Part shown: positions 11,109-59,699 of the stretch, piece by piece
Layout: each line of letters begins with the position of its first letter
Numbering within the stretch: the first letter of the stretch is position 1
DNA from: an uncultured Alphaproteobacteria bacterium
Lineage (GTDB): Bacteria; Pseudomonadota; Alphaproteobacteria; JAPOUT01; G958296285
Assembly: GCA_958296285.1 (NCBI GenBank)
Contig: OY282459.1
Coordinates: forward strand, 258,367 to 322,366
Reading direction: 5' to 3'
DNA length: 64,000 nt
The notes under the pieces: generated by a model
What the model was told of the DNA's origin: nothing
Databases searched by the model: none
The model's input: the letters and a program-made list of their open reading frames with translations, nothing else
Program-made: the position numbers and the translations under genes

Positions 11109-13433
11109 ATGATGCGCAAAATAGGGATCGCTCTCTTTGCCGGGGCGGGTTGTGTCAGCATTTTTCTCTATGGGCTGGGCACGGGCTGGCTGGGCGCGCG
11201 GCGGGACGCCGGCGAGATCACGCCTAGAACGCGGCCTGCCGCCGTCCAAGCCGACTACGCGATCAGGCAGGACAGCGCGCGCGCCGCCGTCAAAGGCTCG
11301 GAGAAGCAAATCCTCTTCGGCGATTTCCATGTCCATACGACCTTCTCGTGGGACGCCTTTCTGATCTCGCTGCCGATGCTGGGCGGCGAAGGCGCGCATC
11401 CTCCGGCGGACGCCTGCGATTTCGCGCGATTCTGCTCGGCGCTGGATTTCTGGTCCATCAACGATCACGCCGAGGGCTTGACCCCCTTCCAATGGCAGGA
11501 GACGCGCGAGAGCATCCGACAATGCGACGCGCTTGCCGGCGACCCCGAAGATCAAGATCTCGTCTCCTTCTTGGGCTGGGAATGGACGCAGGTCGGGAGA
11601 GAGCGCGAGAATCATTACGGACATAAAAACGTGATCCTCCGCGACATTGACGATCGCAAAACGCCGCCGCGCCCGATCGCCTCGGCTAGAGACGGTCTGG
11701 CGATGAACCCGCCTCTCTCCTCGCGGATTCAGCTGGGACTCTTCGCGCCGCAAGGCAGACGGCAGGACTATTTGGATTTCGCCCGCTTCACGCAAGATCG
11801 CGTGACGCTCAAAAAATGCCCGCAAGGCGTTCATGTCCGCGCGCTGCCTGCCGATTGCGAGGAAATTGCCGCCACGCCCGGACTCCTCTATCGCAAACTC
11901 CGCGAATGGGGCTATCCCGCCCTCGTCATCCCGCATGGCACGAGCTGGGGATTCTACACGCCGCAGGGATCCACCTTTGACAAGCAGCTGACCGAAAGAC
12001 AGAACGATCCAGGCTTGCAGACTCTGATTGAAGTCTTTTCGGGACACGGCAATAGCGAGCAATATCGGGACTGGCGCGCCGTCCGTCTGGATGAGGAGGG
12101 CAAGCCCTATTGTCCGAAGCCCAGCGCCGACTATCTGCCCTCCTGCTGGCGCGCCGGAGAGATCATCCGCGCCAGATGCCTGAAGGAAGGCGCGAGCGAG
12201 GAGACCTGCGAAGAGCGCGCCCTCCAAGCGCGGCAATATTACGCCGAAGCGCCCTCCGTGACAGGCTTTCTCGCCATTCCGGGCAGCGACCCCTATGACT
12301 GGCTGGACGCAGGACAATGCCGCGACTGCTATCTCCCGGCTTTCAACTATCGCCCCGGCAGTTCGGTTCAATATACGCTGGCGATCGGAAATTTTGACGA
12401 TCCCGAAAATCCGAAATATTTTCGCTTCGGCTTCATCGGCTCCAGCGACAACCACAAGGCGCGGGCAGGCACAGGCTATAAAGAGTTCGCCCGACAGCAA
12501 ATGACCGAAGCCACGGGCGCCCTTCAGCCGGGAAGCCCTCTTGATCCGATCTTGCGCCGAGAACCCGCCGCCGCCGCGGCGCGCCCGATGGATGACGCGG
12601 CGATAGAGGGACGCGCCAATTTTGATCTCTTGGAAACGGAGCGCAACGGCTCTTTCTTCACGACAGGCGGGCTGGTCGCCGTCCATTCCGGAGGGCGGAA
12701 CAGGCGCGCCATCTGGGACGCCCTAGAGCGCCGCGAAGTCTATGGCACATCGGGCGAGAGAATCCTCCTCTGGTTTGATCTGGAAAACGCGCCGGAGGGA
12801 AAACTCCCAATGGGATCCGAAACCGAAATGGACGCCGCCCCCCGCTTCGCCGTCCGCGCGCTGGGCGCTTTCAAGCAGAAGCCCGGCTGCCCCGATCATG
12901 TCCATGACGCGCTGGGAGACGCGCGGGTGCAGAAAATCTGCCTCGGCGAATGCTACAACCCCTCCGATGAGCGCAAGCGAATCACCCATATTGAGATCAT
13001 CCGAATCACGCCGCAAACCCAAAAAGACGAGCCGATCGCCCCGCTGATCCAAGATGTCTGGAAGCGCATCCCCTGTCCGAAGGAGGGGGAGGGATGCGTC
13101 GCGCAATTCTCCGATCCCGATTTCGTCCGCGGCGGCAGGCGGACAGTCTATTACGCCCGCGCCGTGCAGGAAGAAGCCCCCGTCGTCAATGCCGCGCAGC
13201 TCAGATGCTCCTTTAACGCCGAAGGCGCGTGCGTCTCGGTCAATCCCTGCTACGGCGATTATCGCACGCCCTATCAGGACGACTGTCTCGCCAACGCGCC
13301 GGAAATGGCATGGTCGTCCCCCATCTATATCGGCTATAAGAAGGGCTTGCGCGGGACGCGACCGGCGCCGGCGGCGCGGACGCCCGCGCCGCGAGCGCCG
13401 CAGACGCCGGCGTCTCAGACGCCCGCGCCATAA
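11109..13433 (+). CDS. DUF3604 domain-containing secreted protein (PHP-like fold)
   Basis: Signal peptide. Hallmark DUF3604 motif FGDFHVHTTFSWDAF and ...DFWSINDHAEG. ~770 aa. Ala/Pro-rich C-terminal tail. Confidence 0.7.
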   Translation: MMRKIGIALFAGAGCVSIFLYGLGTGWLGARRDAGEITPRTRPAAVQADYAIRQDSARAAVKGSEKQILFGDFHVHTTFSWDAFLISLPMLGGEGAHPPADACDFARFCSALDFWSINDHAEGLTPFQWQETRESIRQCDALAGDPEDQDLVSFLGWEWTQVGRERENHYGHKNVILRDIDDRKTPPRPIASARDGLAMNPPLSSRIQLGLFAPQGRRQDYLDFARFTQDRVTLKKCPQGVHVRALPADCEEIAATPGLLYRKLREWGYPALVIPHGTSWGFYTPQGSTFDKQLTERQNDPGLQTLIEVFSGHGNSEQYRDWRAVRLDEEGKPYCPKPSADYLPSCWRAGEIIRARCLKEGASEETCEERALQARQYYAEAPSVTGFLAIPGSDPYDWLDAGQCRDCYLPAFNYRPGSSVQYTLAIGNFDDPENPKYFRFGFIGSSDNHKARAGTGYKEFARQQMTEATGALQPGSPLDPILRREPAAAAARPMDDAAIEGRANFDLLETERNGSFFTTGGLVAVHSGGRNRRAIWDALERREVYGTSGERILLWFDLENAPEGKLPMGSETEMDAAPRFAVRALGAFKQKPGCPDHVHDALGDARVQKICLGECYNPSDERKRITHIEIIRITPQTQKDEPIAPLIQDVWKRIPCPKEGEGCVAQFSDPDFVRGGRRTVYYARAVQEEAPVVNAAQLRCSFNAEGACVSVNPCYGDYRTPYQDDCLANAPEMAWSSPIYIGYKKGLRGTRPAPAARTPAPRAPQTPASQTPAP

Positions 13434-13449
13434 CCGCGCCCTTAAGAAT

Positions 13450-13523
13450 GCGGGTGTAGCTCAGGGGCAGAGCACGAGCTTCCCAAGCTCGGTGTCGAGG
13501 GTTCGATTCCCTTCACCCGCTCA
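13450..13523 (+). tRNA. tRNA-Gly (anticodon CCC)
   Basis: Cloverleaf readable directly: acceptor GCGGGTG/CACCCGC, D-arm TAGCTCAGGGGCAGAGCA, anticodon stem-loop CGAGC-TTCCCAA-GCTCG, T-arm GGGTTCGATTCCC. Confidence 0.85.
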
Positions 13524-14963
13524 CTGGGCGCTTCGGAGAAGCATCAGGCGGATTTCGGTCATGTCCTCCATCGCGAAGCGCACGCCCTCGCGCCCCAGAC
13601 CCGAATCCTTCACGCCGCCATAGGGCATCGCATCCACCCGATAGGACGGCACATCCCCAATCACCACGCCCCCGACCTCCAAGCGATCCCAGGCTCTATG
13701 CGCTTTGTGAATGTCGCGCGTGAAAATCCCCGCCTGCAGACCAAAAGCGCTGTCATTGATCTCATTGAGCGCCGCGTCAAAATCGGAAAAGGAGGAGAGA
13801 ACCGCCACGGGCCCAAAAGCCTCCTCGCGCATCAGAGAGCAGGACTTCGGAACTTTTTCCATCAGGGTCGCCGCCAGCATGACTCCCTGCCGCGTCCCCC
13901 CGCAGAGAATATGCCCGCCTTCGGCTTTCGCCTCTTGAATCCAAGATTCCACGCGGCGCGCCTCCTTTTCCGAAATCATCGGCCCGATGAAGGTGTCCTC
14001 CTCTTTCGGATCGCCTATTTTAAGTTTTTGGGTCGCCTCGCGGAGTCTGTCGCGGAAAGGGTCGTAGAGTTTCTCGTGGATCAGGATTCTTTGAACGCCG
14101 ATGCAGCTCTGCCCCGACTGATAAAAAGCGCCGAAGACAACTCGCGCCACCGCCTCCTCTATTTGGGCGTCCTCGTCTATGAGGCATGCCGCGTTGCCGC
14201 CCAGTTCCAAGACGACCTTCTTTTTTCCGGCGCGCGCTTTCAGCGCCCAGCCCACTTTCGGCGAGCCTGTGAAACTGAGCAGTTTTAAGCGCTCATCCTC
14301 CGTGAAAAGACGCGCCCCCTCTCTGGCGCAGGGCAGGACGGAAAACGCGCCTTCCGGCAGATCGGTCTCGGACAGAATCTCGGCAATCATCAAAGCGCCG
14401 ATCGGCGTCAGACTGGCCGGCTTCAGAATGAAGGGGCAGCCGCAGGCAATCGCCGGCGCGACCTTATGCGCCACCAGATTCAAAGGAAAATTAAAAGGCG
14501 AGACAAAAGAGCAGGGGCCTATCGGCACGCGCTTCCACTGCCCGCGATAGCCTCTCGCTCTCGCCGAAATGTCCAAAGGCTGAACTTCGCCGATCATCCG
14601 CTCGGCTTCGCCGGCGGCGATGCGGAAGGTGTCAATCAGGCGCATGACTTCGCCTTTGGAGTCGCGGATGGGCTTCCCCGCTTCAATCGTCAGCGCGGCG
14701 GCAAATTCCGAAAAGCGCTCCTCAAAACGGCGGACGCAATGTTCCAGCGCCTCGCGTCTTTCATAGGAGGCGAGCGCCGCCATCGGCTTCGCCGCTTTGA
14801 GGCACGCCGCGATCGCCCGATCAATCGCCGCTTCGTCCGCCAAAGCCGCCCGCGCCGCCTCTTCGCCTGTATATTTGTCGCGCACGACAAGATCGCGGTT
14901 CGGCGCTTCGGGCTTGCCTGCCAGATAATAGGGGTAATCCTTTTTGGAGAGAGCCATCGTCAT
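13521..14963 (-). CDS. NAD(P)-dependent aldehyde dehydrogenase family protein
   Basis: ALDH family fold. Conserved catalytic Cys region (FYQSGQSCIGVQRILIHE) and glycine motif GSPKVGW. 4-nt overlap with the upstream TPP enzyme gene (operon). Confidence 0.9.
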   Translation of the reverse strand: MTMALSKKDYPYYLAGKPEAPNRDLVVRDKYTGEEAARAALADEAAIDRAIAACLKAAKPMAALASYERREALEHCVRRFEERFSEFAAALTIEAGKPIRDSKGEVMRLIDTFRIAAGEAERMIGEVQPLDISARARGYRGQWKRVPIGPCSFVSPFNFPLNLVAHKVAPAIACGCPFILKPASLTPIGALMIAEILSETDLPEGAFSVLPCAREGARLFTEDERLKLLSFTGSPKVGWALKARAGKKKVVLELGGNAACLIDEDAQIEEAVARVVFGAFYQSGQSCIGVQRILIHEKLYDPFRDRLREATQKLKIGDPKEEDTFIGPMISEKEARRVESWIQEAKAEGGHILCGGTRQGVMLAATLMEKVPKSCSLMREEAFGPVAVLSSFSDFDAALNEINDSAFGLQAGIFTRDIHKAHRAWDRLEVGGVVIGDVPSYRVDAMPYGGVKDSGLGREGVRFAMEDMTEIRLMLLRSAQ

Positions 14964-18734: not shown

Positions 18735-19607
18735 TTATCTTTTGGCGAAGAGGAGACGTGTCAGGAAGGGGAGTTGGAGGATCCAGAGGAGGCGGGTTGT
18801 GTCGGCGGGTTTGCAGGGCGGGAGTCCGAGCGTCAGCGTTTTTTGGGGTTTGTCGGTGTAGGTTCGGAAGATTCTGTCCCAGAGGGAGAGGATGAAGCCG
18901 AAATTTGTGTCGCGCTCGCCTTGGCGGATGGAGTGGTGCGTGCGGTGCATATCGGGCGTGACGAGGATGGCGCGGATGTATTTTTCGTAAGGCTTTTTGA
19001 TGGAGGCGTTGGCGTGGTTGAAGATCGCCATGCTGGAGAGCAGGATTTCAAAGATCATGACGCCGTAGGCGGCGGCGCCCAGCGCGTAGACGGCTGTGAT
19101 TTTGATTCCCATGCTGAGGAGGATTTCTATTGGGTGGAATCGCAGCGCGCTGGATGCGTCTATATCGGGGTCTGTGTGGTGGGCGGCGTGGATTCGCCAG
19201 AGCGCGGGGATTTTATGGAGGAGGGCGTGTTGGGCGTAGATGAGGAGGTCTAGGGCGAGGATTGTGATGAGGATGGAGAGGGCGTGGGGGAGTTTGGTTT
19301 GGTTGAGGAGTCCGATGGTGTTTTGTTGGGCGTGGATGGCGGTTTCTAGGGCGAGGATTGGGACGAGGAGTCGGAGGAGGATCATGTTGCAGAAGCCGAG
19401 TCCGAGGTTGACGGCGAGGCGTTTTTTGAGATTGAGGATGAGGGCTCTTGCTGGGGCGTGGTGTTCCCAGAGCATGATGATTGCGAGGGTTATGATGAAG
19501 ATGGCGCTTCGGATGATGGGTTCATATTCGGTCATGGGGCATTTTATATTTGTGAAAGCTCCAAAAGAAAGGGGGGTTTGGGGGGCTAGCCCCCCAAAAA
19601 AAACCAA
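18735..19607 (-). CDS. sterol desaturase / fatty-acid hydroxylase superfamily membrane protein
   Basis: His boxes HAAHHTD and HRTHHS with multiple TM helices. 290 aa. Confidence 0.8.
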   Translation of the reverse strand: MVFFGGLAPQTPLSFGAFTNIKCPMTEYEPIIRSAIFIITLAIIMLWEHHAPARALILNLKKRLAVNLGLGFCNMILLRLLVPILALETAIHAQQNTIGLLNQTKLPHALSILITILALDLLIYAQHALLHKIPALWRIHAAHHTDPDIDASSALRFHPIEILLSMGIKITAVYALGAAAYGVMIFEILLSSMAIFNHANASIKKPYEKYIRAILVTPDMHRTHHSIRQGERDTNFGFILSLWDRIFRTYTDKPQKTLTLGLPPCKPADTTRLLWILQLPFLTRLLFAKR

Positions 19608-19885
19608 GCGGGCGAAGCCCGCTATAGTCGGCGGGCGTGGCGAAACGAAGCGGGCGAAGCCGCAGGCAAGCCCGCGAGAAAGCCCGCCGACCCCCCTGCT
19701 TACAAGAGCTCTTGCGAGCAGGGGCGGTTGGGGGGTGGGTCGCTTTTCCTCGCTGCGCTACGCCACGAGTGGCTACGCTTGCTCGGAAAAGCTTTTTTCC
19801 CACCCCACCCCCCAACCGTTTCGGGGGGGATTCCCCCCGATCCCCCCTTCTTTCTTGGGGGGCAAGCCCCCCCAAACCCCCCTTA
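19566..19885. repeat. palindromic G6/C6-run repeat element, copy 2 (forward)
   Basis: Same family as copy 1, with the ACCAAGCGGGCGAAGCCCGCT module variant at the left. Intergenic between the desaturase and pyrD. Confidence 0.85.
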
Positions 19886-22189: not shown

Positions 22190-22595
22190 GAAAAGGGGGG
22201 GCGGCGAGCCGCCGCGGGCATCTTTTTCATAGACAGGCATTTTGGATTTGCCCCAGGGGAACTAGTGCATAGAAGCTGAAGGTGAAGGGGGGTCAAGGGG
22301 GGCTTGCCCCCCTTGAGAAAAGGAGGCTCGGGGGAAACCCCCGAATAGTCGGCGGGCGTGGCGAAACGAAGCGAGCGCTAGCGAGCGAGAAAGCCCGCCG
22401 ACCCCCCTGCATCGCGTGAGCTCTTGCGAGCGGGGGGCGCGTGGGTGGGTCGCATTTGCTCGCTCACGCTTCGCTCCGCTCGCAAATGCTTTTTTCCCAC
22501 CCACCCACGCGTTTCGGGGGGGATTCCCCCCCGACCCCCCCCCCTTCTTCGCGGGGGGCTTCGCCCCCCACACCCCCCGTCAGGGAGCTCCCCTG
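22190..22595. repeat. palindromic repeat element, copy 3 (forward; extended variant with ~90-bp 5' module)
   Basis: Core as copy 1. The extra left module GGCGGCGAGCCGCCGCGGGCATCTTTTTCATAGACAGGCATTTTGGATTTGCCCCAGGGGAACTAGTGCATAGAAGCTGAAGG is also present (inverted) at the right end of copy 7. Confidence 0.85.
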
Positions 22596-23370: not shown

Positions 23371-23705
23371 CGCATAGAAGCTGAAGGTTAAGGGGGGTTT
23401 GGGGGGCTAGCCCCCCAAAAAAAAACCAAGCGGGCGCAAGCCCGCTATAGTCGGCGGGCGTGGCGAAACGAAGCGGGCGAAGCCGCAGGCAAGCCCGCGA
23501 GAAAGCCCGCCGACCCCCCTTGCAACGCGAGAGCTCTTGGCGTTCAGGGGGCGCGTGGGTGGGTCGCATTTGCTCGTTTCGCGTTGCTTCACTCGCAAAT
23601 GCTTTTTTCCCACCCACCCACGCGCTTTCGGGGGGATTCCCCCCGACCCCCCCCTTTTCTCAAGGGGGGCAAGCCCCCCTTGACCCCCCGTCAGGGAGCT
23701 CCCCT
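23371..23705. repeat. palindromic repeat element, copy 4 (forward)
   Basis: Same family. Starts with GCATAGAAGCTGAAGGTTAAGGGGGG as copy 3. Confidence 0.85.
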
Positions 23706-30384: not shown

Positions 30385-30695
30385 GCTCCCGTGAAGGGGG
30401 GTTTGGGGGGCTAGCCCCCCAAGAAAGGGGGGGTCGGGGGGAATCCCCCCCGAAAGCGCGTGGGTGGGGTGGGGGAAAAGCATTTGCGAAGCGAGAGTAG
30501 CGAGCGAGCAAATGCGACCCCACCCACGCGCCCCCTGCTAGAAGAGCTCTTGCGATGCAGGGGGGTCGGCGGGCTTTCTCGCGGGCTTGCCTGCGGCTTC
30601 GCCCGCTTCGTTTCGCCACGCCCGCCGACTTTTCGGGGGTTTCCCCCGAACCCCCTTTTTTCAAGGGGGGCAAGCCCCCCTTGACCCCCCTTTAT
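30385..30695. repeat. palindromic repeat element, copy 5 (reverse orientation)
   Basis: Same family in inverted orientation (GCGTGGGTGGG... precedes ...GCTTCGTTTCGCCACGCCCGCCGACT). Intergenic prfA/prmC. Confidence 0.85.
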
Positions 30696-30724
30696 CGGAG
30701 CCAAGAAACCGATACACTGCCCAA

Positions 30725-31582
30725 ATGACAAACAAACCCCTCCCCAAAGACGCCCGCCTCTGCGCAGCAAAACTCCGCCAAATCTTCCAAAACGCCAACA
30801 TCAAAACACCCGCCCTAGACGCACAAATCCTCACAGCCCACGCCGCCAAACAAACCCCCGAAACTATCCTCTCACAAAAAATAACCCTCCCCCAAAAAAC
30901 ACGCCAATGGCTCCAAAAAGCCGCGCAAAAACGAATCCAAGGCGAACCAATCTCACGAATCATAAAACGCCGAAATTTCTGGAAAACCTCCTTCGCCATC
31001 AACCCCCACGTCCTAGACCCACGACCCGAAAGCGAAACCATCATAGAAGCCGCCCTCGCCAAAATATCCAAAAATCAACCCGCCACAATCCTAGACCTCG
31101 GCATAGGAAGCGGATGCCTCCTCCTCTCCCTATTGCGCGAAATGCCCAAAGCCAAGGGCATCGGCATAGACCTCTCGCATCAAGCCCTGCGAACAGCCCA
31201 AAAAAACGCCGCCGCGCAAAATCTCGCGCCCCGCGCCCGCTTCATCAACGGCAATTGGGGCGAAGCCCTCGCCCCCGCCTCCTTCCATATCATCCTCGCC
31301 AACCCCCCCTACATCCCAACAGACCATCTGCCGCATCTGCCAGCCGAAGCAAAGCGCGATCCGCCCCTCGCCCTGGACGGCGGCAAAGACGGGATCCGCG
31401 CCTTCGCCCAAATCCTTCCGCAAATCGCGCCCCTCCTAACCCCAAACGGCTTCGCCGTATTAGAAATCGGCGCCGGACAACTCAACCCCCTGCGCCGCCT
31501 CGCCGCCAAAGCCTCGCTCCGTCTGGATAAAATCACGCCAGACCTCTCCCATATCCCGCGCGCCCTCACCCTGACCCGATGA
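30725..31582 (+). CDS. prmC: release factor glutamine N5-methyltransferase PrmC (HemK)
   Basis: NPPY motif (ILANPPYIPT). SAM-binding LDLGIGSGCLLLSL. The start is most likely MTNKPLP (30725); the upstream part of the ORF lies in the repeat. Confidence 0.85.
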   Translation: MTNKPLPKDARLCAAKLRQIFQNANIKTPALDAQILTAHAAKQTPETILSQKITLPQKTRQWLQKAAQKRIQGEPISRIIKRRNFWKTSFAINPHVLDPRPESETIIEAALAKISKNQPATILDLGIGSGCLLLSLLREMPKAKGIGIDLSHQALRTAQKNAAAQNLAPRARFINGNWGEALAPASFHIILANPPYIPTDHLPHLPAEAKRDPPLALDGGKDGIRAFAQILPQIAPLLTPNGFAVLEIGAGQLNPLRRLAAKASLRLDKITPDLSHIPRALTLTR

Positions 31583-41194: not shown

Positions 41195-41337
41195 GGTGTT
41201 TAGGATTTTATCATGGATTTATGTTTAGGCGGGTTTGGGTTCTTTTGGTTTTGGTAGTCGTGATGGGGGTTATTCTTGTCGCGGGTTTTGTTGTTGTGGT
41301 TGTGGAGATTGTGTCGCGGGCTTGGGCGCTGTGGAGT

Positions 41338-41730
41338 TAAGAAAGGGGGGTGTGGGGGGCGAAGCCCCCCGCGAAGAAGGGGGGATCGGGGGGAATCCCC
41401 CCCGAAAGCGCGTGGGTGGGGTGGGGAAAAAGCATTTGCGAGTGAAGCAACGCGAAACGAGCAAATGCGACCCACCCACGCGCCCCCTGCTAGAAGAGCT
41501 CTTGTAAGCAGGGGGGTCGGCGGGCTTTCTCGCAGGCTCGCGCTACGCGCTTCGCCTGCTTCGTTTCGCCACGCCCGCCGACCGCAGCGGGCTTCGCCCG
41601 CTTGGTTTTTTTGGGGGGCTAGCCCCCCAAACCCCCCTTCACCTTCAGCTTCTATGCCCTAGTTCCCCTGCGGCAAATCCAAAATGCCTATCCATGCAAA
41701 AAATGCCCGCGGCGGCTCGCCGCCGCGCTC
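41338..41730. repeat. palindromic repeat element, copy 7 (reverse; extended variant with the ~90-bp module at its right end)
   Basis: Core 41338-41648, then the inverted GGCATTTTGGATTTGCC...GCCGCCGCG module to ~41730. Immediately upstream of tRNA-Glu. Confidence 0.85.
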
Positions 41731-41776
41731 CCTTGATTCCCAAACCTAACCCCCCTATAAACCCCAAACACGTCCC

Positions 41777-41851
41777 GTCCCCTTCGTCTAGCGGTCTAGG
41801 ACGCCGCCCTCTCACGGCGGAAACAGGGGTTCGAGTCCCCTAGGGGACGCC
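41777..41851 (+). tRNA. tRNA-Glu (anticodon CUC)
   Basis: GTCCCCTTCGTCTAGCGGTCTAGGACGCCGCCCTCTCACGGCGGAAACAGGGGTTCGAGTCCCCTAGGGGACGCCA. Near-identical architecture to E. coli tRNA-Glu; anticodon loop CTCTCAC. Confidence 0.85.
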
Positions 41852-41890
41852 ACCAACACAGAAACCCAACCCATCCCATACGCCCCCCTT

Positions 41891-43774
41891 ATCCTCACAA
41901 TAAGCCTCGCCTTCGCCGCGAGCGCCGCCAACGCCAAATCCACCCCCCCCCTCGCGCCCCTCACGCCCGACCCCCTCATCATCCAAGCCACGCTCTCGCC
42001 CCAATCCCTCCGAAAAATAGGGAGCGCCATCACAATCCTGACAAAAGACGAGCTCCAAAAATCCGGCGCCGTCTTCCTGATAGACGCCCTCCAAACCGCG
42101 CCCGGCATCACCATCTCGCAATCAGGACCGCCCGGAACCCTCGCCAGCGTCCGAATGCGCGGCGGCGAAGCCGACCACACCCTCATCCTCCTAGACGGCA
42201 TGGAACTGAACAGCCCAACAGGCGGCTACGACTTCGCCCACCTCCTCGTCAGCGAAATAAACCGCGTGGAAATCATCCCAGGACCCCAAAGCGTCGCGCA
42301 TGGCGGCGGCGGATTGGCAGGAACCATCAGCCTCTCCACCAGCGACGACGCGCCCATCAGCGCCGACTCCCCCGCCATCCAAAGCGCGTCCGCCGCCGCC
42401 GAAGGCGGATCGTTCGGCTCCGTCCTCATCCGCGCTGCCGCCGCCCTAAAAAATCACACAAGCCGCGCCCGCCTCGCCGCCGCTTTCTACGCCTCCGACA
42501 ATGTGGATATCTCGCCCAATGACGGCAGAAAAGAGCGGGACGGATACCAAAATCTCACCCTCCACGCGCTCTACGCCCACAAAATGGGCGGCGTCCTCTT
42601 CCAAGCCGCCGCGCGCCACGCGCAAGCGAAAGGCGACTATGACGGAACCGCCAACGGAATCCCGAACGATCGCCTCGGCGGCGACAGCGAATATGAACTC
42701 CGCTCCACCGCGCTTCGCGCCCAACTCCGCCGCGACAATCACGCCCTCGCCGTCTCCTACCTCCACAGACGCGACAAAAATCAAGACGGGATGATCCGCG
42801 ACATCACGCTGAATAAAGTCGCGCGCGCGACCATCACGGCGCAATCATCATGGCGCATGAGGCGGGGAGATTTGTCGCTCCGCGCCGGATGGGAGCTGGA
42901 AGAATTTCAGCAAACCCATAACCAAAATCGGCGGGAGCAAACCACGCGCAGCTTCATCGCCGCCGAGCAAAGCCTCGCCTTCCGAAACGCGCTCTTCACG
43001 ACCCTCGGACTCCGATATGACAGAAACAGCGACTTCGCCTCGTCTTTGACTTGGCGCGCGACCGCGGCATGGCAAATCCCCGTCTTTATGCCGCTCCGCC
43101 TCCGCGCCGCATACGGAACGGCCGTCCAAAATCCCAGCCTCTACGATCTCTACGGCTTTAATCCTTCGCGCTTCGCCTTCACGCCAAACCCCAATCTGCA
43201 GCCGGAAAAGGCGCGAGGCTTTGAAATCGGGGCGGATTTTCTGCCCTCGCCTTTCTCCGCCATCGGCGTCAGCTATTTTGAAACGAGACTGGAAAAGGAA
43301 ATCACCTTCAACCCGCGAAGAGAAGGCCCGACCGTCGCCAACGCGACAGGCGGCAGCGAAAGGCGAGGCGCGGAGGCGAGCCTCTCATGGAACATGCTCT
43401 CCAGCCTCGCCCTCCAAGCGCGATACAGTTTCACATCATCCAAACAGCCCAATGGCGCGCAGGAACTCCGCCGCCCCAGACACCAAATCCAAGCCTCCGC
43501 CACATGGTCGCCCTTAAAACGTCTCCGCCTCCATGTGGGCGCGGCTTATGTCTCCAAACAGAGGGATCGCGTCTTTCTGTCAGAGCCGCCCTTCGCCCGC
43601 GATGTCATCCTTGACGGCTACGCGCTTCTGCGCGCGAAAATCGCCTGCAGTTTCGGCGCGAAGACGGTGGTCTATCTGCGCGCCGAAAATCTCTTGGACG
43701 AATCCTATCAGCATGTCGCCGGCTACGCGACTCGCGGCATCGGCGTCTTCGCCGGCGTGGAGCGGCGCTTTTAG
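41891..43774 (+). CDS. TonB-dependent outer-membrane receptor (no canonical ATG/GTG/TTG start in frame; possible non-canonical start or incipient pseudogene)
   Basis: In-frame translation from 41891 gives signal-like ILTISLAFAASAANA and a plug domain (...ILTKDELQKSGAVFLIDALQTAPGITISQSGPPGTLASVRMRGGEADHTLILLDGMELNSP). C-terminus ends ...VERRF with a terminal aromatic residue (beta-barrel). The six-frame track starts only at M42155, inside the plug. Confidence 0.65.
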   Translation: MLTISLAFAASAANAKSTPPLAPLTPDPLIIQATLSPQSLRKIGSAITILTKDELQKSGAVFLIDALQTAPGITISQSGPPGTLASVRMRGGEADHTLILLDGMELNSPTGGYDFAHLLVSEINRVEIIPGPQSVAHGGGGLAGTISLSTSDDAPISADSPAIQSASAAAEGGSFGSVLIRAAAALKNHTSRARLAAAFYASDNVDISPNDGRKERDGYQNLTLHALYAHKMGGVLFQAAARHAQAKGDYDGTANGIPNDRLGGDSEYELRSTALRAQLRRDNHALAVSYLHRRDKNQDGMIRDITLNKVARATITAQSSWRMRRGDLSLRAGWELEEFQQTHNQNRREQTTRSFIAAEQSLAFRNALFTTLGLRYDRNSDFASSLTWRATAAWQIPVFMPLRLRAAYGTAVQNPSLYDLYGFNPSRFAFTPNPNLQPEKARGFEIGADFLPSPFSAIGVSYFETRLEKEITFNPRREGPTVANATGGSERRGAEASLSWNMLSSLALQARYSFTSSKQPNGAQELRRPRHQIQASATWSPLKRLRLHVGAAYVSKQRDRVFLSEPPFARDVILDGYALLRAKIACSFGAKTVVYLRAENLLDESYQHVAGYATRGIGVFAGVERRF

Positions 43775-50992: not shown

Positions 50993-51693
50993 CGCAACCG
51001 CGAGATTCGGATTTTCGGAAGGATGACAGCCAAGTGCGCTTCCCGATGACGGCGCATGACGTCCGCAAAGCCTATCGGCGCTGGGCGCCTTTTTACGATT
51101 TTCTTTTCTCGCCCTTCGTGCTGCGGATGACGCATCATCAGGTGGCGAATCATGTGAATGGGGGGGCTGGCTCTGTTTTGGAGGTCGGCGTGGGGACGGG
51201 CTTCGCGCTTCCTCTTTACGAGACTCATTTGACGATCACCGGCGTGGATCTCTCGCCTGAGATGCTGGCGCGGGCGCGCCGCCGCGTGGAGAAGCGGGGG
51301 CTTGGCCACATTCATGAGCTTGCCGAGATGGACGCGACCGAACTTGCCTATCCCGACGGTCATTTTGACATGGTGGTGGCGGTGCATGTGATGTCGGTGG
51401 TTCCTGATCCCTGCCGCGTTTTTCGGGAGTTGGAGCGGGTCTGCAAGCCTGGGGGCGAGGTGATCATCGTCAATCATTTTCAGAGGGAGAAGCGCGATGT
51501 GATCGGCTTTATGGAGCGGGCGATCGCGCCTTTGTCGCGTTATTTGGGCTGGCATCCTGACATGCCGATCGCGATTTTCAACAAGCCTGGGCAGCTTTTG
51601 CTGTTGAAGGAGAAGCGGACGTTGAAACCTTTTGGTCTTTTCACGATGCTGCTTTTCAAGAAGCCTCTGTCGGCGGTTGGCGCGGCGGAGTAG
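50989..51693 (+). CDS. class I SAM-dependent methyltransferase (small, PmtA-like)
   Basis: SAM motif VLEVGVGTGFALP and motif II DMVVAVHVM. 4-nt overlap with mnmA. The stop overlaps the tRNA-Met 5' end by ~10 nt. Confidence 0.7.
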   Translation: MTQPRDSDFRKDDSQVRFPMTAHDVRKAYRRWAPFYDFLFSPFVLRMTHHQVANHVNGGAGSVLEVGVGTGFALPLYETHLTITGVDLSPEMLARARRRVEKRGLGHIHELAEMDATELAYPDGHFDMVVAVHVMSVVPDPCRVFRELERVCKPGGEVIIVNHFQREKRDVIGFMERAIAPLSRYLGWHPDMPIAIFNKPGQLLLLKEKRTLKPFGLFTMLLFKKPLSAVGAAE

Positions 51694-51760
51694 CTCAGTT
51701 GGTTAGAGCAGCGGAATCATAATCCGCGTGTCGGGGGTTCGAGTCCCTCCTCCGCTACCA
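51684..51760 (+). tRNA. tRNA-Met (anticodon CAU; elongator Met or tRNA-Ile2(k2C) not distinguishable by eye)
   Basis: GGCGGAGTAGCTCAGTTGGTTAGAGCAGCGGAATCATAATCCGCGTGTCGGGGGTTCGAGTCCCTCCTCCGCTACCA. Anticodon loop ATCATAA. CCA encoded. Confidence 0.85.
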
Positions 51761-52483: not shown

Positions 52484-53178
52484 ATATAAGGAAACACCCG
52501 CCACGGCACGCGCTTCTTATAATCAGCATAACCTTTGAGATTTTTCTCCAAAAATCGCTCCTCATAGCCAATCCGCCAAAGAAACATCGCGCAAAGAACG
52601 CCCATCGTCAGCGAGAAAATCCACTGCTGCACAATCAGCGCCCAGCCCGGAAAAACGATCAGCGCCGCCAAATACATCGGATGGCGAACATGGCGGTAAA
52701 GACCGTCCGAAACGACCCGCTGCCCCTCATGCTTGATCACGACAAGGCTGGAAAAAGCGTTCTGAAACATCGCCGCCGCGAAAATCCCCAATCCCAGCGC
52801 GAAAAGACAAACCCCCAAAAGAAGAGGAACCGTCTCAAAATCGCCGTCCGCCAAATAGGCGGAGGCGTAAAAGCCTCCGTAAAAAACCACGGAGAAAAGG
52901 GCGAGAAAGATTTTATCCCCGAAAGGCTGATCGCCAGAGGCGATCTTCATGCGACTCAACAGATAGTCGGGACGCCAAAAGGCAAGATAGAAAATGAACG
53001 GCGCCGGCAGAATGACCAGCATCACATAGGTGATGAGATAGGGGACATGAAAATCGCCGCCCGCCAAGAAAAAAGGAATGACGCCGTAAAGGATCGCCGC
53101 CATCAGCACCGCGCCCAAAGCCAAAAGAGTGGAGCGAAGATAAGTCATCTTCAACATTATATCCTTTACTCGGGGCAA
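52477..53178 (-). CDS. isoprenylcysteine carboxyl methyltransferase (ICMT/PEMT)-family membrane methyltransferase
   Basis: 5-6 TM helices. C-terminal ICMT-family signature ...RVVSDGLYRHVRHPMYLAALIVFPGWALI...EERFLEKNLKGYADYKKRVP. Lies immediately downstream of, and overlaps, the AIPR gene on the same strand. Confidence 0.7.
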   Translation of the reverse strand: MPRVKDIMLKMTYLRSTLLALGAVLMAAILYGVIPFFLAGGDFHVPYLITYVMLVILPAPFIFYLAFWRPDYLLSRMKIASGDQPFGDKIFLALFSVVFYGGFYASAYLADGDFETVPLLLGVCLFALGLGIFAAAMFQNAFSSLVVIKHEGQRVVSDGLYRHVRHPMYLAALIVFPGWALIVQQWIFSLTMGVLCAMFLWRIGYEERFLEKNLKGYADYKKRVPWRVFPYIY

Positions 53179-55400
53179 GATACAATGCCATCAACAAGGC
53201 TTTTGTGTTGCACGGCATGTTTGGCCCACGCAAACGCCGCAAGATAGTCTGCTCCCTTTTGAAGATTTTGATCCCAAGAATCTATTATTTCAAATACTTG
53301 AATCCGAGTTTTAACGTTATAGACCATTCTCGTCCTTGATGTTGTTTGATGGTAGAGTTCCTTCCAACTGCCACCCGCCAATTGTTCGATTATATTGCAG
53401 AACATAGACCAACTCTTCCCCACCAAATGATTCTCTTCAAATTTTCCATCCTTCACCGCCTCCGAGATGAGTGTGGCATCCATGCTTGTTTTCAATCTCT
53501 GGAGGTCTGTCTTTTCAAGAAGATTCGGAAAAATCCGATACAGGCCTTTCCCGTATTTTTTGAATAAAAGGTATCCCACCATCTCAACGTATATATACAT
53601 GGCTGTATTCTTAACTACTCCAGCCAAATATTCTGATTCTTTCATCAAGAGGGTAGCCTTTTCTTCTGGTGTTATCCTCGTGCTCGTGATCCCCAACTTT
53701 TTTTCCATATGCTTCCGATGGTCCTGGTTGGATGGAGTCAGCTGTTTCGCAGCTTTACTCAGCAAATAAGCAGTTAGCAGAGCTTGGTGCGGGGGAGATT
53801 GAGGCTCAAAGTCCTCCTTGATCCGCCTAGGGTCGTATTTCAATCTATAATCTCCACCTTCCTGAAGGGAATGCTGCTCGGGTCGCCTCTCAAACACGGT
53901 CTTATAGTAGTCATGCGTATCTACAAAAATTCTCTTTTTGTCATGCATAGCCTCGCTAGAAAACCCTATGAACGCTAACCAGGCTTCAGCGACGTGACTA
54001 TTCTCGGCGACCCGATATTTTCTCCTTCTTGCATCGTGAGACGTTTGTATTGCGAAATGCTGTGGTTTCTTCCCTGGCAGAGTGGGCCAGTCCTCGGACT
54101 CTCTGAAAGCTTCCCATGCGAATTCTTTCCTCTCATAAAACCAGCCTTCTTTAGCAAAGTCCTTTTCTAGAGCTTTTTGCTCCTCCTCATTTGATTTAAG
54201 ATTCCGGGGATCCATCACATTCTGAGTGTTGGTAGCAATGATGAGCTCCCCTACATCCTCAACAGCCCCTTTCTCGAATGCTCGCACCAAAACGTAACAT
54301 TCTTTCTCAAAAATCTTCTTCAACTCAGAGCCCATGTCCTTATAGGTTTCGGAAAGTGTTGTGATCGTCTGCAACCCGTTCACGATGCCAGGCTTAACAA
54401 AGGTTGCGCAGCCAGGCTTACCACGATCGGAAGGTTTAGCGGAAACAGACTCAGCAAGAATCGTCAACCCGTTATTCAGCAGGTGAAACTTCTTGATCCC
54501 TTTTTCTGTTTGAATCTGATCCTCTATTTTCTTATTGACCGCCGATTTAGAGATCGCGCAGCGAACATTGTCTTCAAATATACGCTGTCCAAAATCTTCG
54601 TATCCGTTTATGAGGTCATAGGCCTTCGCGAAGAAAACCTTGAACCCCTCATCATCTATCACATCCCCACGGATAGCAACCGTAATCCTATCCCTTTTAT
54701 CGCCGCCTCGGTCACGCCAACCAAAATTTCCTAAAGCCCATTGCGCTTCTAACAGCCTATCAATGCCGAGGATTTTGAACTCAACAGAACATTCAACGCC
54801 ATTTACGGTCAGATTTTTTGAGGACTGTTGAATTTCCCGAAACATTTCTTTTGCTTGGTCAGTTAAACCTGAGCCAGAAAGAATGAGTGAGATATCTATT
54901 TTATAGACGTCTTGGATTTCTCCACCATCCCCACCTTGACGCCTAAATTTTCGCAACTCGGATAATAAAGTCTGCTGAAAGCCCCGAATACTGTGATTCT
55001 GCTCTCTCTTCGCTTTATGAGCTGTATTCAAATAATTGAGAATACTGTTTATATCACCAAGATTTTTACGGTCATGCTTCTCTTTCCAGATATCCAAAAT
55101 ATCCGCGTCTCGCCCTTTGCATTGAAAAATCTCCACCTTTCCAGGCTTAAAAGCATAGAAATCAATGCCTCTATCACCTGGGCCGTCGGACATATCGGAA
55201 TTGTCAGCACTTTCTCTATCGTCATAGCCAAGGCACTCTAGCGCGACAATTTTAAAGGCTTCTGGATATGAGAGATCGTCCGTATTCATTGCTTCACGGA
55301 TTCTCTCCGAGAGCTCCTGCAATAGATTGCTGCGCTGGTTTTCAGGAAAAGCGCTGTTTCTGTTGGCGTGTCCTTTGCTCAACTTAACCTCCTCTGACAA
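53166..55400 (-). CDS. AIPR-family (abortive-infection phage-resistance-like) protein, 744 aa
   Basis: Contains the AIPR hallmark NGxQT twice (LLNNGLTIL and GIVNGLQTITTL). Large, Lys/Glu-rich. GC ~42%. Low-GC islet next to tRNA-Met. Confidence 0.65.
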   Translation of the reverse strand: MSEEVKLSKGHANRNSAFPENQRSNLLQELSERIREAMNTDDLSYPEAFKIVALECLGYDDRESADNSDMSDGPGDRGIDFYAFKPGKVEIFQCKGRDADILDIWKEKHDRKNLGDINSILNYLNTAHKAKREQNHSIRGFQQTLLSELRKFRRQGGDGGEIQDVYKIDISLILSGSGLTDQAKEMFREIQQSSKNLTVNGVECSVEFKILGIDRLLEAQWALGNFGWRDRGGDKRDRITVAIRGDVIDDEGFKVFFAKAYDLINGYEDFGQRIFEDNVRCAISKSAVNKKIEDQIQTEKGIKKFHLLNNGLTILAESVSAKPSDRGKPGCATFVKPGIVNGLQTITTLSETYKDMGSELKKIFEKECYVLVRAFEKGAVEDVGELIIATNTQNVMDPRNLKSNEEEQKALEKDFAKEGWFYERKEFAWEAFRESEDWPTLPGKKPQHFAIQTSHDARRRKYRVAENSHVAEAWLAFIGFSSEAMHDKKRIFVDTHDYYKTVFERRPEQHSLQEGGDYRLKYDPRRIKEDFEPQSPPHQALLTAYLLSKAAKQLTPSNQDHRKHMEKKLGITSTRITPEEKATLLMKESEYLAGVVKNTAMYIYVEMVGYLLFKKYGKGLYRIFPNLLEKTDLQRLKTSMDATLISEAVKDGKFEENHLVGKSWSMFCNIIEQLAGGSWKELYHQTTSRTRMVYNVKTRIQVFEIIDSWDQNLQKGADYLAAFAWAKHAVQHKSLVDGIVSCPE

Positions 55401-57467: not shown

Positions 57468-57712
57468 GTGTCGTCTTTTCGCACGAAGGTGACGGCGTAG
57501 TGGATTCGTCCTTCTAGGAGGGGTTTGGGTTCGCCGAGTCCGTCGGTCAGGAAGAATTTGCGCGGCGTCACGCGCCCTTCGAGGCGGTAGCCGCGCTCGT
57601 GCATTTTGCGGCGATGGAATTCCATCGCGGCGGGCGTGAAATCGGTCGAGAGGACTGTGATTCTTTCGGGGAGCGCGGTTTGGCTTTTGTCGTTTTTGGT
57701 TTTGTCGTTCAT
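57464..57712 (-). CDS. small hypothetical protein (82 aa)
   Basis: ATGA-type overlaps with both neighbours indicate translational coupling inside the msrA operon. No recognisable motif. Confidence 0.4.
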   Translation of the reverse strand: MNDKTKNDKSQTALPERITVLSTDFTPAAMEFHRRKMHERGYRLEGRVTPRKFFLTDGLGEPKPLLEGRIHYAVTFVRKDDT

Positions 57713-58203
57713 GGCGCTTCTCTCGCGCGGAAGAGGCGGGCTGTGTGTTTTTCTTCGTAATGTTGGTGGTAGTCTTCGGCGCGCCAGAATTGGGTTTTTG
57801 GTTGGATTTCTGTCGCGATGGGTTTTTGGAGGCGTCCGGAGTTTTGGAGCGCCGTCAGGGATTCGCGCGCCAGTTTATTTTGTTCTTCGGAGTGGGTGAA
57901 GATGGCGCTTCTATATTGGGTTCCGATGTTGGGGCCTTGTTTATTTTTTTGGGTTGGGTCGTGGCATGTCCAGAAAGTTTGGAGGAGGGTTTGGTAGGAG
58001 ATGGTTTGGGGGTCAAAGATGATGTGGATGGTTTCGGCGTGGCCTGTTTGTCCTGTGCAGACTTGTTCGTAGGAGGGGTTTGGGGTTGTTCCGCCTGTGT
58101 ATCCGACTTCGGTTTTGAGGATGCCTGGGATTTTGGCGAAGATGCTTTGGACTTGCCAGAAGCATCCTGCGGCGAAGCTGGCGTGTTGGGTTTGGTTGGT
58201 CAT
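57709..58203 (-). CDS. msrA: peptide-methionine (S)-S-oxide reductase MsrA
   Basis: Active-site GCFWQ (FAAGCFWQVQSIF) and downstream GYTGG..YEQVCTGQTGHAE. The start is taken at MTNQTQ (58203); the upstream ORF part is repeat sequence. Confidence 0.85.
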   Translation of the reverse strand: MTNQTQHASFAAGCFWQVQSIFAKIPGILKTEVGYTGGTTPNPSYEQVCTGQTGHAETIHIIFDPQTISYQTLLQTFWTCHDPTQKNKQGPNIGTQYRSAIFTHSEEQNKLARESLTALQNSGRLQKPIATEIQPKTQFWRAEDYHQHYEEKHTARLFRAREAP

Positions 58204-58213
58204 GGGGGGATTA

Positions 58214-58552
58214 TAGCATAGAAGTTTTGGTTTGGTTTGCTCCCGTGAAGGGGGGTCAAGGGGGGCTTGCCCCCCTTGAAAAAAGGGGGGATCGGGGGGA
58301 ATCCCCCCCGAAAGCGCGTGGGTGGGGTGGGGAAAAAGCATTTGCGAAGCGAGGTGAGCCGAGCGAGCAAATGCGACCCCACCCACGCGCCCCCTGCTCG
58401 CAAGATCTCTTGGAGGGGGGTCGGCGGGCTTTCTCGCGGGCTTGCCTACGGCTTCGCCCGCTTCGTTTCGCCACGCCCGCCGACCTTTCGGGGGTTTCCC
58501 CCGAACCCCCTTTTTTCTTGGGGGGCTAGCCCCCCAAACCCCCCTTCTTTTG
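58214..58552. repeat. palindromic repeat element, copy 8 (reverse)
   Basis: Same family. Begins with a truncated GCATAGAAG module. Intergenic msrA/ACAD. Confidence 0.85.
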
Positions 58553-58559
58553 GAGCAAC

Positions 58560-59699
58560 CTAAAAGCCCCCCAACCGCGCATAACGCGCACGATGAAACC
58601 GACCATCGCCATACAACTGAGCCTGAACCCGCGCCCGCTTCATGAATAAACCCATATCCAACTCATCCGTCATCCCCATCCCGCCATGCAACTGAACCGC
58701 CTCATTCGTAATATGACGCAAAGCCTCCGACATCCGAGCCTTCGCCAAACTCGCCATCTGCGCCACATCATCACGCCCCTCCTCCAACGCCGACAACCCA
58801 TCCCAAACAACCGAATGACCCAACTCAATCTGACAAAACATCTCCGCCGCCCGATGCTTCAAAGCCTGAAAAGACCCAATCGGCTGATCAAACTGCCGGC
58901 GCTCCTTCATATGCGCCAAAATCCTCTCAAAAAGCTCGCGCGCCGCGCCCAGCATCTCAGAAGCAAGCGCGATCCGCGAAACATCCAAAACACGCGACAA
59001 AATCTCGCCGCCCCGATCCAACTCGCCCAAAACCGAATCCTCGCCCAGCGCCACATCCTCCAACTGAATGTCCGCCATGCCGCGACTGTCCGCCATGGAA
59101 AGAGAAACACGCTCAACCCCCCTCGCGTCTGACGGAAAAAGAAAAAGCGTGATGCCCCGCTTGTCGTCTTTCTCGCCGCTCGTCCTCGCCGAAACAATGA
59201 GCCAATCCGCCGCGCCGCCGTCCGGCGCGAAGCGCTTGCGCCCCCGAAGCGTGAAGCCGCCCCGCCCCCTCCTCGCCTCGCATGAAACCGCATAAGGCGC
59301 ATGACGCGCGCCCTCGTCAAAAGCGGGGGCGAAAATTCTCTCGCCGGCGGCGATCTTCGGCAAATGCGCCTTCTTCTGCGCCTCGCTGCCAGCATGATTG
59401 ACGGCTTCCGCCGAAACGCAAGAGGTCGCGAAAAGAGGGGAGGGCGAAAGCCTCCGCCCCGCCTCCTCAAAAACCAACCCCATGCCCAGCGCGCCAAAGC
59501 CGGTGCCGCCATAATCTTCCGGAATCATCATGCCGGCGAAGCCGAGCTCCGCCATTTTCTTCCACAGATTCCCGTCAAAAGCCTCGCCCTCCCCCGCGTC
59601 CCGAAGAGCGCGCAAATGAGAGACAGGCATATGGTCTTGGAAAAACTGCGCCGCCGTTTCCCGCAGCAGCCCATGCTCCTCGCTCAATAGGAACGCCAT
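58560..59699 (-). CDS. acyl-CoA dehydrogenase family protein
   Basis: ACAD three-domain layout. Conserved ..GGMGMTDE.. C-terminal region and catalytic-base neighbourhood. Confidence 0.85.
   Translation of the reverse strand: MAFLLSEEHGLLRETAAQFFQDHMPVSHLRALRDAGEGEAFDGNLWKKMAELGFAGMMIPEDYGGTGFGALGMGLVFEEAGRRLSPSPLFATSCVSAEAVNHAGSEAQKKAHLPKIAAGERIFAPAFDEGARHAPYAVSCEARRGRGGFTLRGRKRFAPDGGAADWLIVSARTSGEKDDKRGITLFLFPSDARGVERVSLSMADSRGMADIQLEDVALGEDSVLGELDRGGEILSRVLDVSRIALASEMLGAARELFERILAHMKERRQFDQPIGSFQALKHRAAEMFCQIELGHSVVWDGLSALEEGRDDVAQMASLAKARMSEALRHITNEAVQLHGGMGMTDELDMGLFMKRARVQAQLYGDGRFHRARYARLGGF

Follow-up and report, generated by a model that had tools for sequence, protein, structure and literature searches.

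A gene for a TonB-dependent receptor that lacks a canonical start codon is described here in a 64,000-nucleotide (nt) stretch of an uncultured alphaproteobacterial genome (contig OY282459.1, positions 258,367 to 322,366), which is referred to as the window. The gene lies directly behind a gene for tRNA-Glu, and all positions given below are those of the window on its plus strand unless stated otherwise. Sequence comparison suggests, with moderate confidence, that this is a functional gene of the BtuB family in which a near-cognate codon has taken the place of the ancestral ATG, and that translation most likely begins at the AUC at 41873-41875. No canonical start is present before the N-terminal parts of the protein that are essential to its function. 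A conserved block opens with this ATC, the reading frame behind it is intact and under purifying selection, and the outgroup carries an ATG at the matching place.

The analysis compared five loci. Four of them form a clade: the window, L001 (97% identity to the window), L007 (a strain with 98% identity, assembled as a circular 1.72-Mb long-read contig) and L002 (about 64% amino acid identity). The fifth, L008, is a more distant syntenic relative that was located via its ClpB gene (69% identity) and serves as the outgroup.

The receptor and its reading frame

The proposed full coding sequence spans 41873-43774 (633 codons and a stop) and ends in a C-terminal Phe, the last residues being RRF. 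In a translation begun at 41843, residues 56-161 match the Plug domain PF07715 (42008-42325; E = 6e-20, 72.1 bits against a cut-off of 23.9) and residues 232-617 match the beta-barrel domain PF00593 (42536-43693; E = 6e-37, 128.9 bits against a cut-off of 27). Both Pfam profile matches exceed the gathering scores for a TonB-dependent receptor. The two further marks of such receptors, a TonB box and a C-terminal aromatic residue, are also present. The TonB box DPLIIQAT (41969-41992) is kept in L002 and L008, and the receptor segment TPDPLIIQAT aligns with SPDTLVVTA of mature E. coli BtuB. The best structural matches are those of E. coli BtuB (PDB 1NQE and related entries), with E = 2e-30 over nearly the full length. 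The best family match, TIGR01779, is likewise a BtuB model. The scores against the BtuB equivalog models fall far below their cut-offs (192.8 against 599.7 bits for TIGR01779 and 168.7 against 836 bits for NF007926). The protein appears from its sequence to be a TonB-dependent outer-membrane receptor of the BtuB family with a putative vitamin-B12-type substrate.

The first canonical codon in frame is the ATG at 42155-42157. It lies in the middle of the Plug match, in agreement with the original prediction, which had placed this Met deep in the plug and had described an intact plug behind a signal-like segment. That prediction had also reported no in-frame ATG, GTG or TTG upstream of this position, and the finding can be extended: from 41853 to 42154 none of the three codons occurs in any of the three plus-strand frames. 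The nearest in-frame stop upstream is the TAG at 41789-41791. It had previously been placed at 41840-41842, where the codon is CTA and a TAG at 41841-41843 is out of frame; its position inside the tRNA-Glu gene is unaffected by the correction. The region upstream of the ATG encodes the TonB box and the first 49 residues of the Plug match, and is thus coding. Its openness would not be significant alone, since only about 1.65 chance stops are expected from composition in this 94-codon part. About 15 are expected in the 633-codon frame as a whole, and none is observed.

Three in-frame ATN codons are found near the signal region, namely ATC at 41873, ATC at 41891 and ATA at 41900. The original prediction had listed only the latter two and had overlooked the ATC at 41873-41875, which is the best start candidate. 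It lies 20 nt past the end of the tRNA, and in the window, L001 and L007 no other near-cognate codon of this frame stands between it and the tRNA. It also opens the invariant block ATCCCATACGCC, is conserved within the clade and aligns with the ATG of the outgroup. Translation and the comparison of relatives predict a signal peptide that starts here, (M/I)PYAPLILTISLAFAASAANA (41873-41935), with cleavage after ANA and before K. This putative peptide of 21 amino acids (aa) has a hydrophobic core and an AxA motif followed by K; a canonical start and a basic n-region are absent. The earlier remark on the missing basic n-region was therefore correct, while the peptide is not unusually short, as had been thought.

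Comparison of the start region among relatives

At all five loci a tRNA-Glu (CUC) gene stands directly upstream of the receptor gene and an MMPL gene is convergent downstream. The gene order of L008 (pseudouridine synthase, tRNA-Glu, receptor, MMPL) is the same as that of the window. The tRNA gene (41777-41852) encodes its CCA end and is identical in the four clade members. It is followed by a spacer (41853-41872) that contains a single G and no Shine-Dalgarno (SD) sequence. The distance from the tRNA to the ATC is 20 nt in the window, 19 nt in both L001 and L007, and 35 nt in L002; in L008 the distance to the ATG is 110 nt. The spacer length is thus not kept in frame among the loci.

The sequence behind the spacer behaves differently. 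An invariant ATC CCA TAC GCC follows it in the window, L001, L007 and L002, and none of these four independent assemblies has a canonical start. Past the ATC every indel preserves the frame: L001 differs by 9 nt and L002 by three events of 3 nt each. An indel of 1 nt directly precedes the ATC, where the window has CCC and L001 and L007 have CC. These in-frame indels, the 1-nt indel and the rank of the ATC as first near-cognate codon together argue for a reading frame that opens with this codon or shortly behind it.

The alignment with orthologues that had been suggested as a way to locate the ancestral ATG points to the same codon. In L008 the sequence AAGGAAG is followed by an ATG and by a signal peptide of 23 aa, MGRNSLACFIAIGLLFPLGLAHA, which ends in AHA and is followed by ED. 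The signal peptide of L002 has 21 aa, as in the window, and ends in AHA before K. In a MAFFT alignment, M1 of L008 corresponds to I1 of the window (ATC 41873), its Ile12 (ATA) corresponds to ATA 41900, and an Ile corresponds to M42155. The ancestral ATG therefore stood at 41873 or only a few codons away. By the same alignment ATA 41900 is not a decayed ATG, as had been supposed in the ATG-to-ATA change of the original prediction; this codon is an Ala codon in L002. Nor do the orthologues start at M42155, a finding that would have refuted the original prediction.

The gene has been obscured by its annotation. Gene callers shorten the receptor to 539 or 510 aa in all four clade genomes, including the 539-aa call in the window itself (on a 1.733-Mb contig), and the only two close receptor clusters in the protein database are truncated to these lengths. 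Since such calls are meaningless as receptors, annotation pipelines would score this lineage as lacking an intact B12-type receptor. The lineage is also poorly sampled, as its ClpB has at most about 61% identity to that of named Alphaproteobacteria. Among the matches listed for GTDB representative genomes, only distant receptor homologues (24-31% identity) were found, and close relatives may have been missed there. Protein-pattern and exact-DNA scans of JGI metagenomes found nothing, and a look-up of the 539-aa product of the window gave no record. Two homologues, P0003 and P0004, were considered as additional outgroups for the start position and rejected, as they are not syntenic.

A cobalamin riboswitch in the 5' leader of btuB is usual, if not obligatory. 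No such riboswitch was found in the window, where a permissive Rfam scan showed no remnant either, and none was found in L002 or L008. The nearest receptor homologues from outside the clade (31-33% identity) do carry cobalamin riboswitches (L009, 2668-2896; L010, 2638-2876), and the search placed one upstream of each of the homologues P0003 and P0004. In one outside homologue the next gene downstream encodes a CobA/BtuR adenosyltransferase. In the clade studied here, a tRNA gene stands where the outside homologues have the riboswitch leader.

Selection on the receptor gene

All five orthologues are free of stops and frameshifts across 630-646 codons. From codon 95 to the end, the window and L002 differ by 0.265 nonsynonymous substitutions per site (dN) and 1.42 synonymous substitutions per site (dS). 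Between the window and L007 the dN/dS ratio is 0.26 over the same codons, inside the range of 0.11-0.54 found for the neighbouring genes in this comparison, and 0.36 over the whole gene. In the barrel region dN/dS is 0.19-0.26. The window, L001 and L002 share six invariant TGG codons for Trp, although the G>A bias would convert such codons to stops. Among the usual signs of a pseudogene, disruptions and a dN/dS near 1 are missing from the five orthologues (0.19-0.36), and the loss of the initiation codon is present.

The start-less state is common to the window and L002, whose synonymous divergence is about 1.4. The start was thus lost long ago and the gene has been kept ever since, which rules out the fresh pseudogene that had been offered as one possibility. 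Purifying selection on the barrel implies export of the protein, and translation would therefore have to include the signal peptide.

Proposed initiation and expression

The AUC at 41873-41875 would be decoded as formylmethionine by the initiator tRNA. The product would consist of the 21-residue signal peptide MPYAPLILTISLAFAASAANA, cleaved before K, followed by the TonB box, the plug and the barrel. In E. coli, AUC has been shown to initiate at 1-2% of the level of AUG, and mass spectrometry identified Met as the N-terminal residue (Hecht et al., bioRxiv 10.1101/063800). A similarly low rate is expected at the receptor, of the order of 1% of that from AUG as in E. coli reporters. Locally unstructured mRNA has been shown to permit initiation without an SD sequence (Scharff et al., 2011, PMC3121790). 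The region from -20 to +30 around the ATC is predicted to be fully unpaired in all four clade members. Initiation without an SD sequence is frequent in this genome, where a 4-mer SD core precedes 17 of 42 genes.

Transcription of the receptor would occur by read-through from the conserved promoter of the tRNA-Glu gene, and 3' processing of the tRNA would release a short, G-poor and unstructured leader that lacks an SD sequence. A promoter-like block upstream of the tRNA gene (41733-41761; TTGATT, a spacer of 17 nt and TATAAA) is conserved in L001, L007 and L002, and its CTTGA is also found in L008. Since there is no terminator between the tRNA gene and the open reading frame (ORF) and no room for a promoter, we infer that the two are co-transcribed. 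Strong transcription from the tRNA promoter and weak initiation at the AUC would together yield low constitutive expression, which would suit a receptor without a riboswitch that other lineages hold down by means of the cobalamin riboswitch. Two terminator-like GC hairpins with T-runs were observed between the repeat core described below and the tRNA promoter, at 41586-41611 on the plus strand and 41727-41698 on the minus strand. A possible role is to insulate the tRNA-receptor unit from the pseudouridine synthase gene that diverges from it.

The unusual start is a property of this gene. A codon-usage gene finder called 50 genes in the window, and in the receptor alone did the coding signal set in well before the first canonical start (codon 18 of the open frame against codon 121). 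The same survey flagged only the receptor among the 12 genes of L002 and found L008 normal. A genome-wide use of non-canonical starts was considered and rejected, as the very C+A-rich genes at 18735-19757, 30542-31582 and 57709-58662 start at a normal ATG; the long open stretches before these starts are repeat sequence. Several ATG starts, including those at 19535 (minus strand), 22623 (plus strand) and 58203 (minus strand), have a box resembling TATAAT or TATAAA 5-7 nt upstream and lack an SD sequence, which suggests leaderless or near-leaderless mRNAs.

Alternative explanations

Several observations weigh against translation from the AUC at 41873-41875. In model bacteria AUC initiates very poorly, and here an SD sequence is absent as well. 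The n-region of the putative signal peptide has no basic residue, and both the N-terminus of the receptor and its expression are predicted from sequence. The promoter of the tRNA gene was assigned by eye, and a consensus promoter scan of 41200-42300 found no site under a strict rule that requires T at position 6 of the -10 element. Upstream of the ATC, L002 has two more in-frame near-cognate codons (ATA and ATT), and the true start could be the second conserved ATC at 41891. The 1-nt indel ahead of ATC 41873 sits in a run of C, where a sequencing error in the window is possible, although L001 and L007 agree with each other. Finally, a comparison of the window with L007 gives 8 nonsynonymous against 1 synonymous change in the first 94 codons, and 20.5 against 25.5 in the rest of the gene (Fisher p = 0.025). 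Constraint on the N-terminal part may be relaxed, or the excess may stem from strong local mutation pressure; none of the 8 changes lies in the signal peptide, and several are G>A.

A functional gene could start at a different non-canonical codon, either ATC 41891, with the 15-residue leader MLTISLAFAASAANA, or ATA 41900, with the 12-residue leader MSLAFAASAANA. Both are near-cognates, ATC 41891 is also an ATC for Ile in L002, and sequence alone cannot pick among AUN codons. The leaders, however, are below the usual length of a Sec signal peptide, whereas the 21 aa from 41873 match the 23-aa signal peptide of the outgroup. ATA 41900 was already an Ile codon in the outgroup and is not conserved in L002, and the invariant 12-nt block and the in-frame indel pattern both begin at 41873. 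A start at either of the two codons is thus considered unlikely. The original prediction had named both as possible rare starts; of its two alternatives the rare start is supported, with ATC 41873 as the better codon. Another alternative is a pseudogene, in which start loss silenced the receptor and left the ORF as an untranslated relic. In its favour are the absence of both a canonical start and an SD sequence, the excess of nonsynonymous changes in the first 94 codons between close strains, and the strong mutational bias around the gene. It is also unlikely: the start-less state is older than the split between the window and L002, yet 630-633 codons remain open in all four copies, the indels are in frame, TGG codons have been retained against the G>A pressure, and the constraint on the barrel is like that of neighbouring genes that are clearly functional.

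The annotated start at ATG 42155 has in its favour that it is the only canonical one and that its Met is conserved in L002. It would give a product of 539 aa without the signal peptide, the TonB box and the first half of the plug. Without an export signal, purifying selection on the beta-barrel would make no sense; the corresponding residue in L008 is Ile, no SD sequence precedes the ATG, and the 94 codons upstream are conserved in frame, including the TonB box that aligns with BtuB. This start is accordingly regarded as very improbable. An error of sequencing or assembly that conceals a true ATG or a frameshift is hardly credible. The region does contain C homopolymers, and the long-read assembly of L001 splits other genes, but four assemblies made independently from different samples agree on the start-less sequence, one of them the circular 1.72-Mb contig. 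Moreover, a single indel could not restore a start, because no ATG, GTG or TTG is present in any frame. The split genes of L001 are ClpB (734 + 148 aa) and MMPL (610 + 283 aa), at 220-2884 and 11638-14326; both are intact in the window and L007. These splits are probably long-read homopolymer errors, and single-base indels found in L001 alone are therefore not to be trusted.

A repeat-centred compositional bias

A probable cause of the loss of the ATG is a strand-asymmetric bias centred on a GC-rich palindromic intergenic repeat. The core of this repeat (27 nt) is found at 41515-41541, upstream of the tRNA gene. It has eight matches in the window (starting at 19666, 22377, 23489, 30564, 35084, 41515, 58419 and 62235), where none is expected by chance. 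At the core next to the receptor, the C+A fraction of the plus strand switches from 0.21-0.40 on the left to 0.59-0.68 on the right, which bears out the C+A-rich block that had been noted to the right of a repeat copy. Across the seven copies that were profiled, the fraction changes from about 0.21-0.38 to about 0.65-0.76. The bias is strongest in the first 500 nt or so and fades over 1-2.5 kb. The exception is the left arm of the copy at 23489, which is swamped by the copy at 22377, 1.1 kb away. The strand read 5' to 3' away from the repeat is C+A-rich on both sides regardless of gene orientation; a skew that follows the orientation of genes was therefore rejected in favour of one that is positional around the repeats. 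At third codon positions, C+A is 0.71-0.88 in genes that read away from a repeat and 0.17-0.26 in those that read towards one. The sign of the switch is opposite to that at a replication origin.

Third positions in the window, relative to L002, give counts of 93 against 10 for T>C, 34 against 7 for G>A and 59 against 19 for G>C. As G>C is among the favoured changes, ATG>ATC is a change in the favoured direction. In the sequence read for L008, no repeat lies upstream of the tRNA-Glu gene; the bias is absent and the ATG has been kept, which fits a loss of the ATG under the bias. The ATG was thus probably lost under a bias that arose in this clade and that depletes G and T on the receptor strand. 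The local bias invoked by the original prediction is real and centred on the repeat, and a loss along it is plausible, in the form of ATG to ATC rather than ATG to ATA. The ATG has been kept in seven other genes oriented away from repeats and lost in the receptor. The receptor start would be a concrete read-out of this compositional bias.

The switch is compatible with changes of the deamination type on the strand that runs 5' to 3' towards the repeat. A more specific account is that active, localised mutagenesis (C>T and A>G on the strand with its 3' end towards the repeat, as on 3' single-stranded tails after a break and resection) destroyed the ATG of the receptor, and that the gene has long been kept by AUC initiation on the leader left by tRNA processing. 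This account is speculative and, as a whole, doubtful. If true, mutation pressure would here have rewritten a start codon in nature, with a tRNA promoter as compensation.

Relation to known systems

The receptor resembles E. coli BtuB in its TonB box (DPLIIQAT compared with DTLVVTA), plug, barrel and C-terminal aromatic residue. It differs in that it has no cobalamin riboswitch, scores far below the equivalog cut-offs, stands behind a tRNA gene and lacks a canonical start. AUU starts are used in E. coli by infC and pcnB, which are likewise functional genes whose only plausible start differs from AUG at the third base, is conserved and is expected to initiate weakly. The codon proposed here is AUC rather than AUU, it has no SD sequence and no known link to IF3 autoregulation, and its use is predicted from comparison. 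The receptor would thus be a new instance of a known, rare phenomenon.

A parallel for the gene arrangement is the thrU-tyrU-glyT-thrT-tufB operon of E. coli, a tRNA-mRNA operon in which tufB has its own SD sequence and AUG. In both cases a protein gene stands directly behind tRNA genes with no terminator or promoter in between, an arrangement that points to co-transcription and release by tRNA processing. The spacer at the receptor is only 20 nt, and co-transcription there is suggested by the layout and its conservation. Initiation independent of an SD sequence has been described (Scharff et al., 2011, PMC3121790; Nakagawa et al., 2017, PMC5397173), and the receptor shares with it the missing SD sequence, an initiation region predicted to be unpaired and an SD-poor genome. 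The starts in those studies were AUG; the combination with a non-AUG start is not established. If AUC initiation holds true, the receptor would represent a rare case in nature of a bacterial gene that starts at a conserved AUC, lacks an SD sequence and is expressed as a tRNA-mRNA co-transcript.

Additional observations

An antisense ORF overlaps the 5' end of the receptor gene at 41812-42201 on the minus strand. Its counterpart in L001 (9668-9967, minus strand) has been called as a gene of 99 aa and has no Pfam match. It is most likely a spurious call that fills the gap left by the truncated receptor annotation.

Elsewhere in the window, a gene of the AIPR (abortive-infection) type encoding 744 aa lies at 53166-55400 on the minus strand, in a segment of 45-49% GC (about 51.7-55.5 kb) between ICMT/PEMT and ADH genes. 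These flanking genes are adjacent in L001, and the AIPR segment is therefore a strain-specific insertion, located near a tRNA-Met gene (51684-51760).

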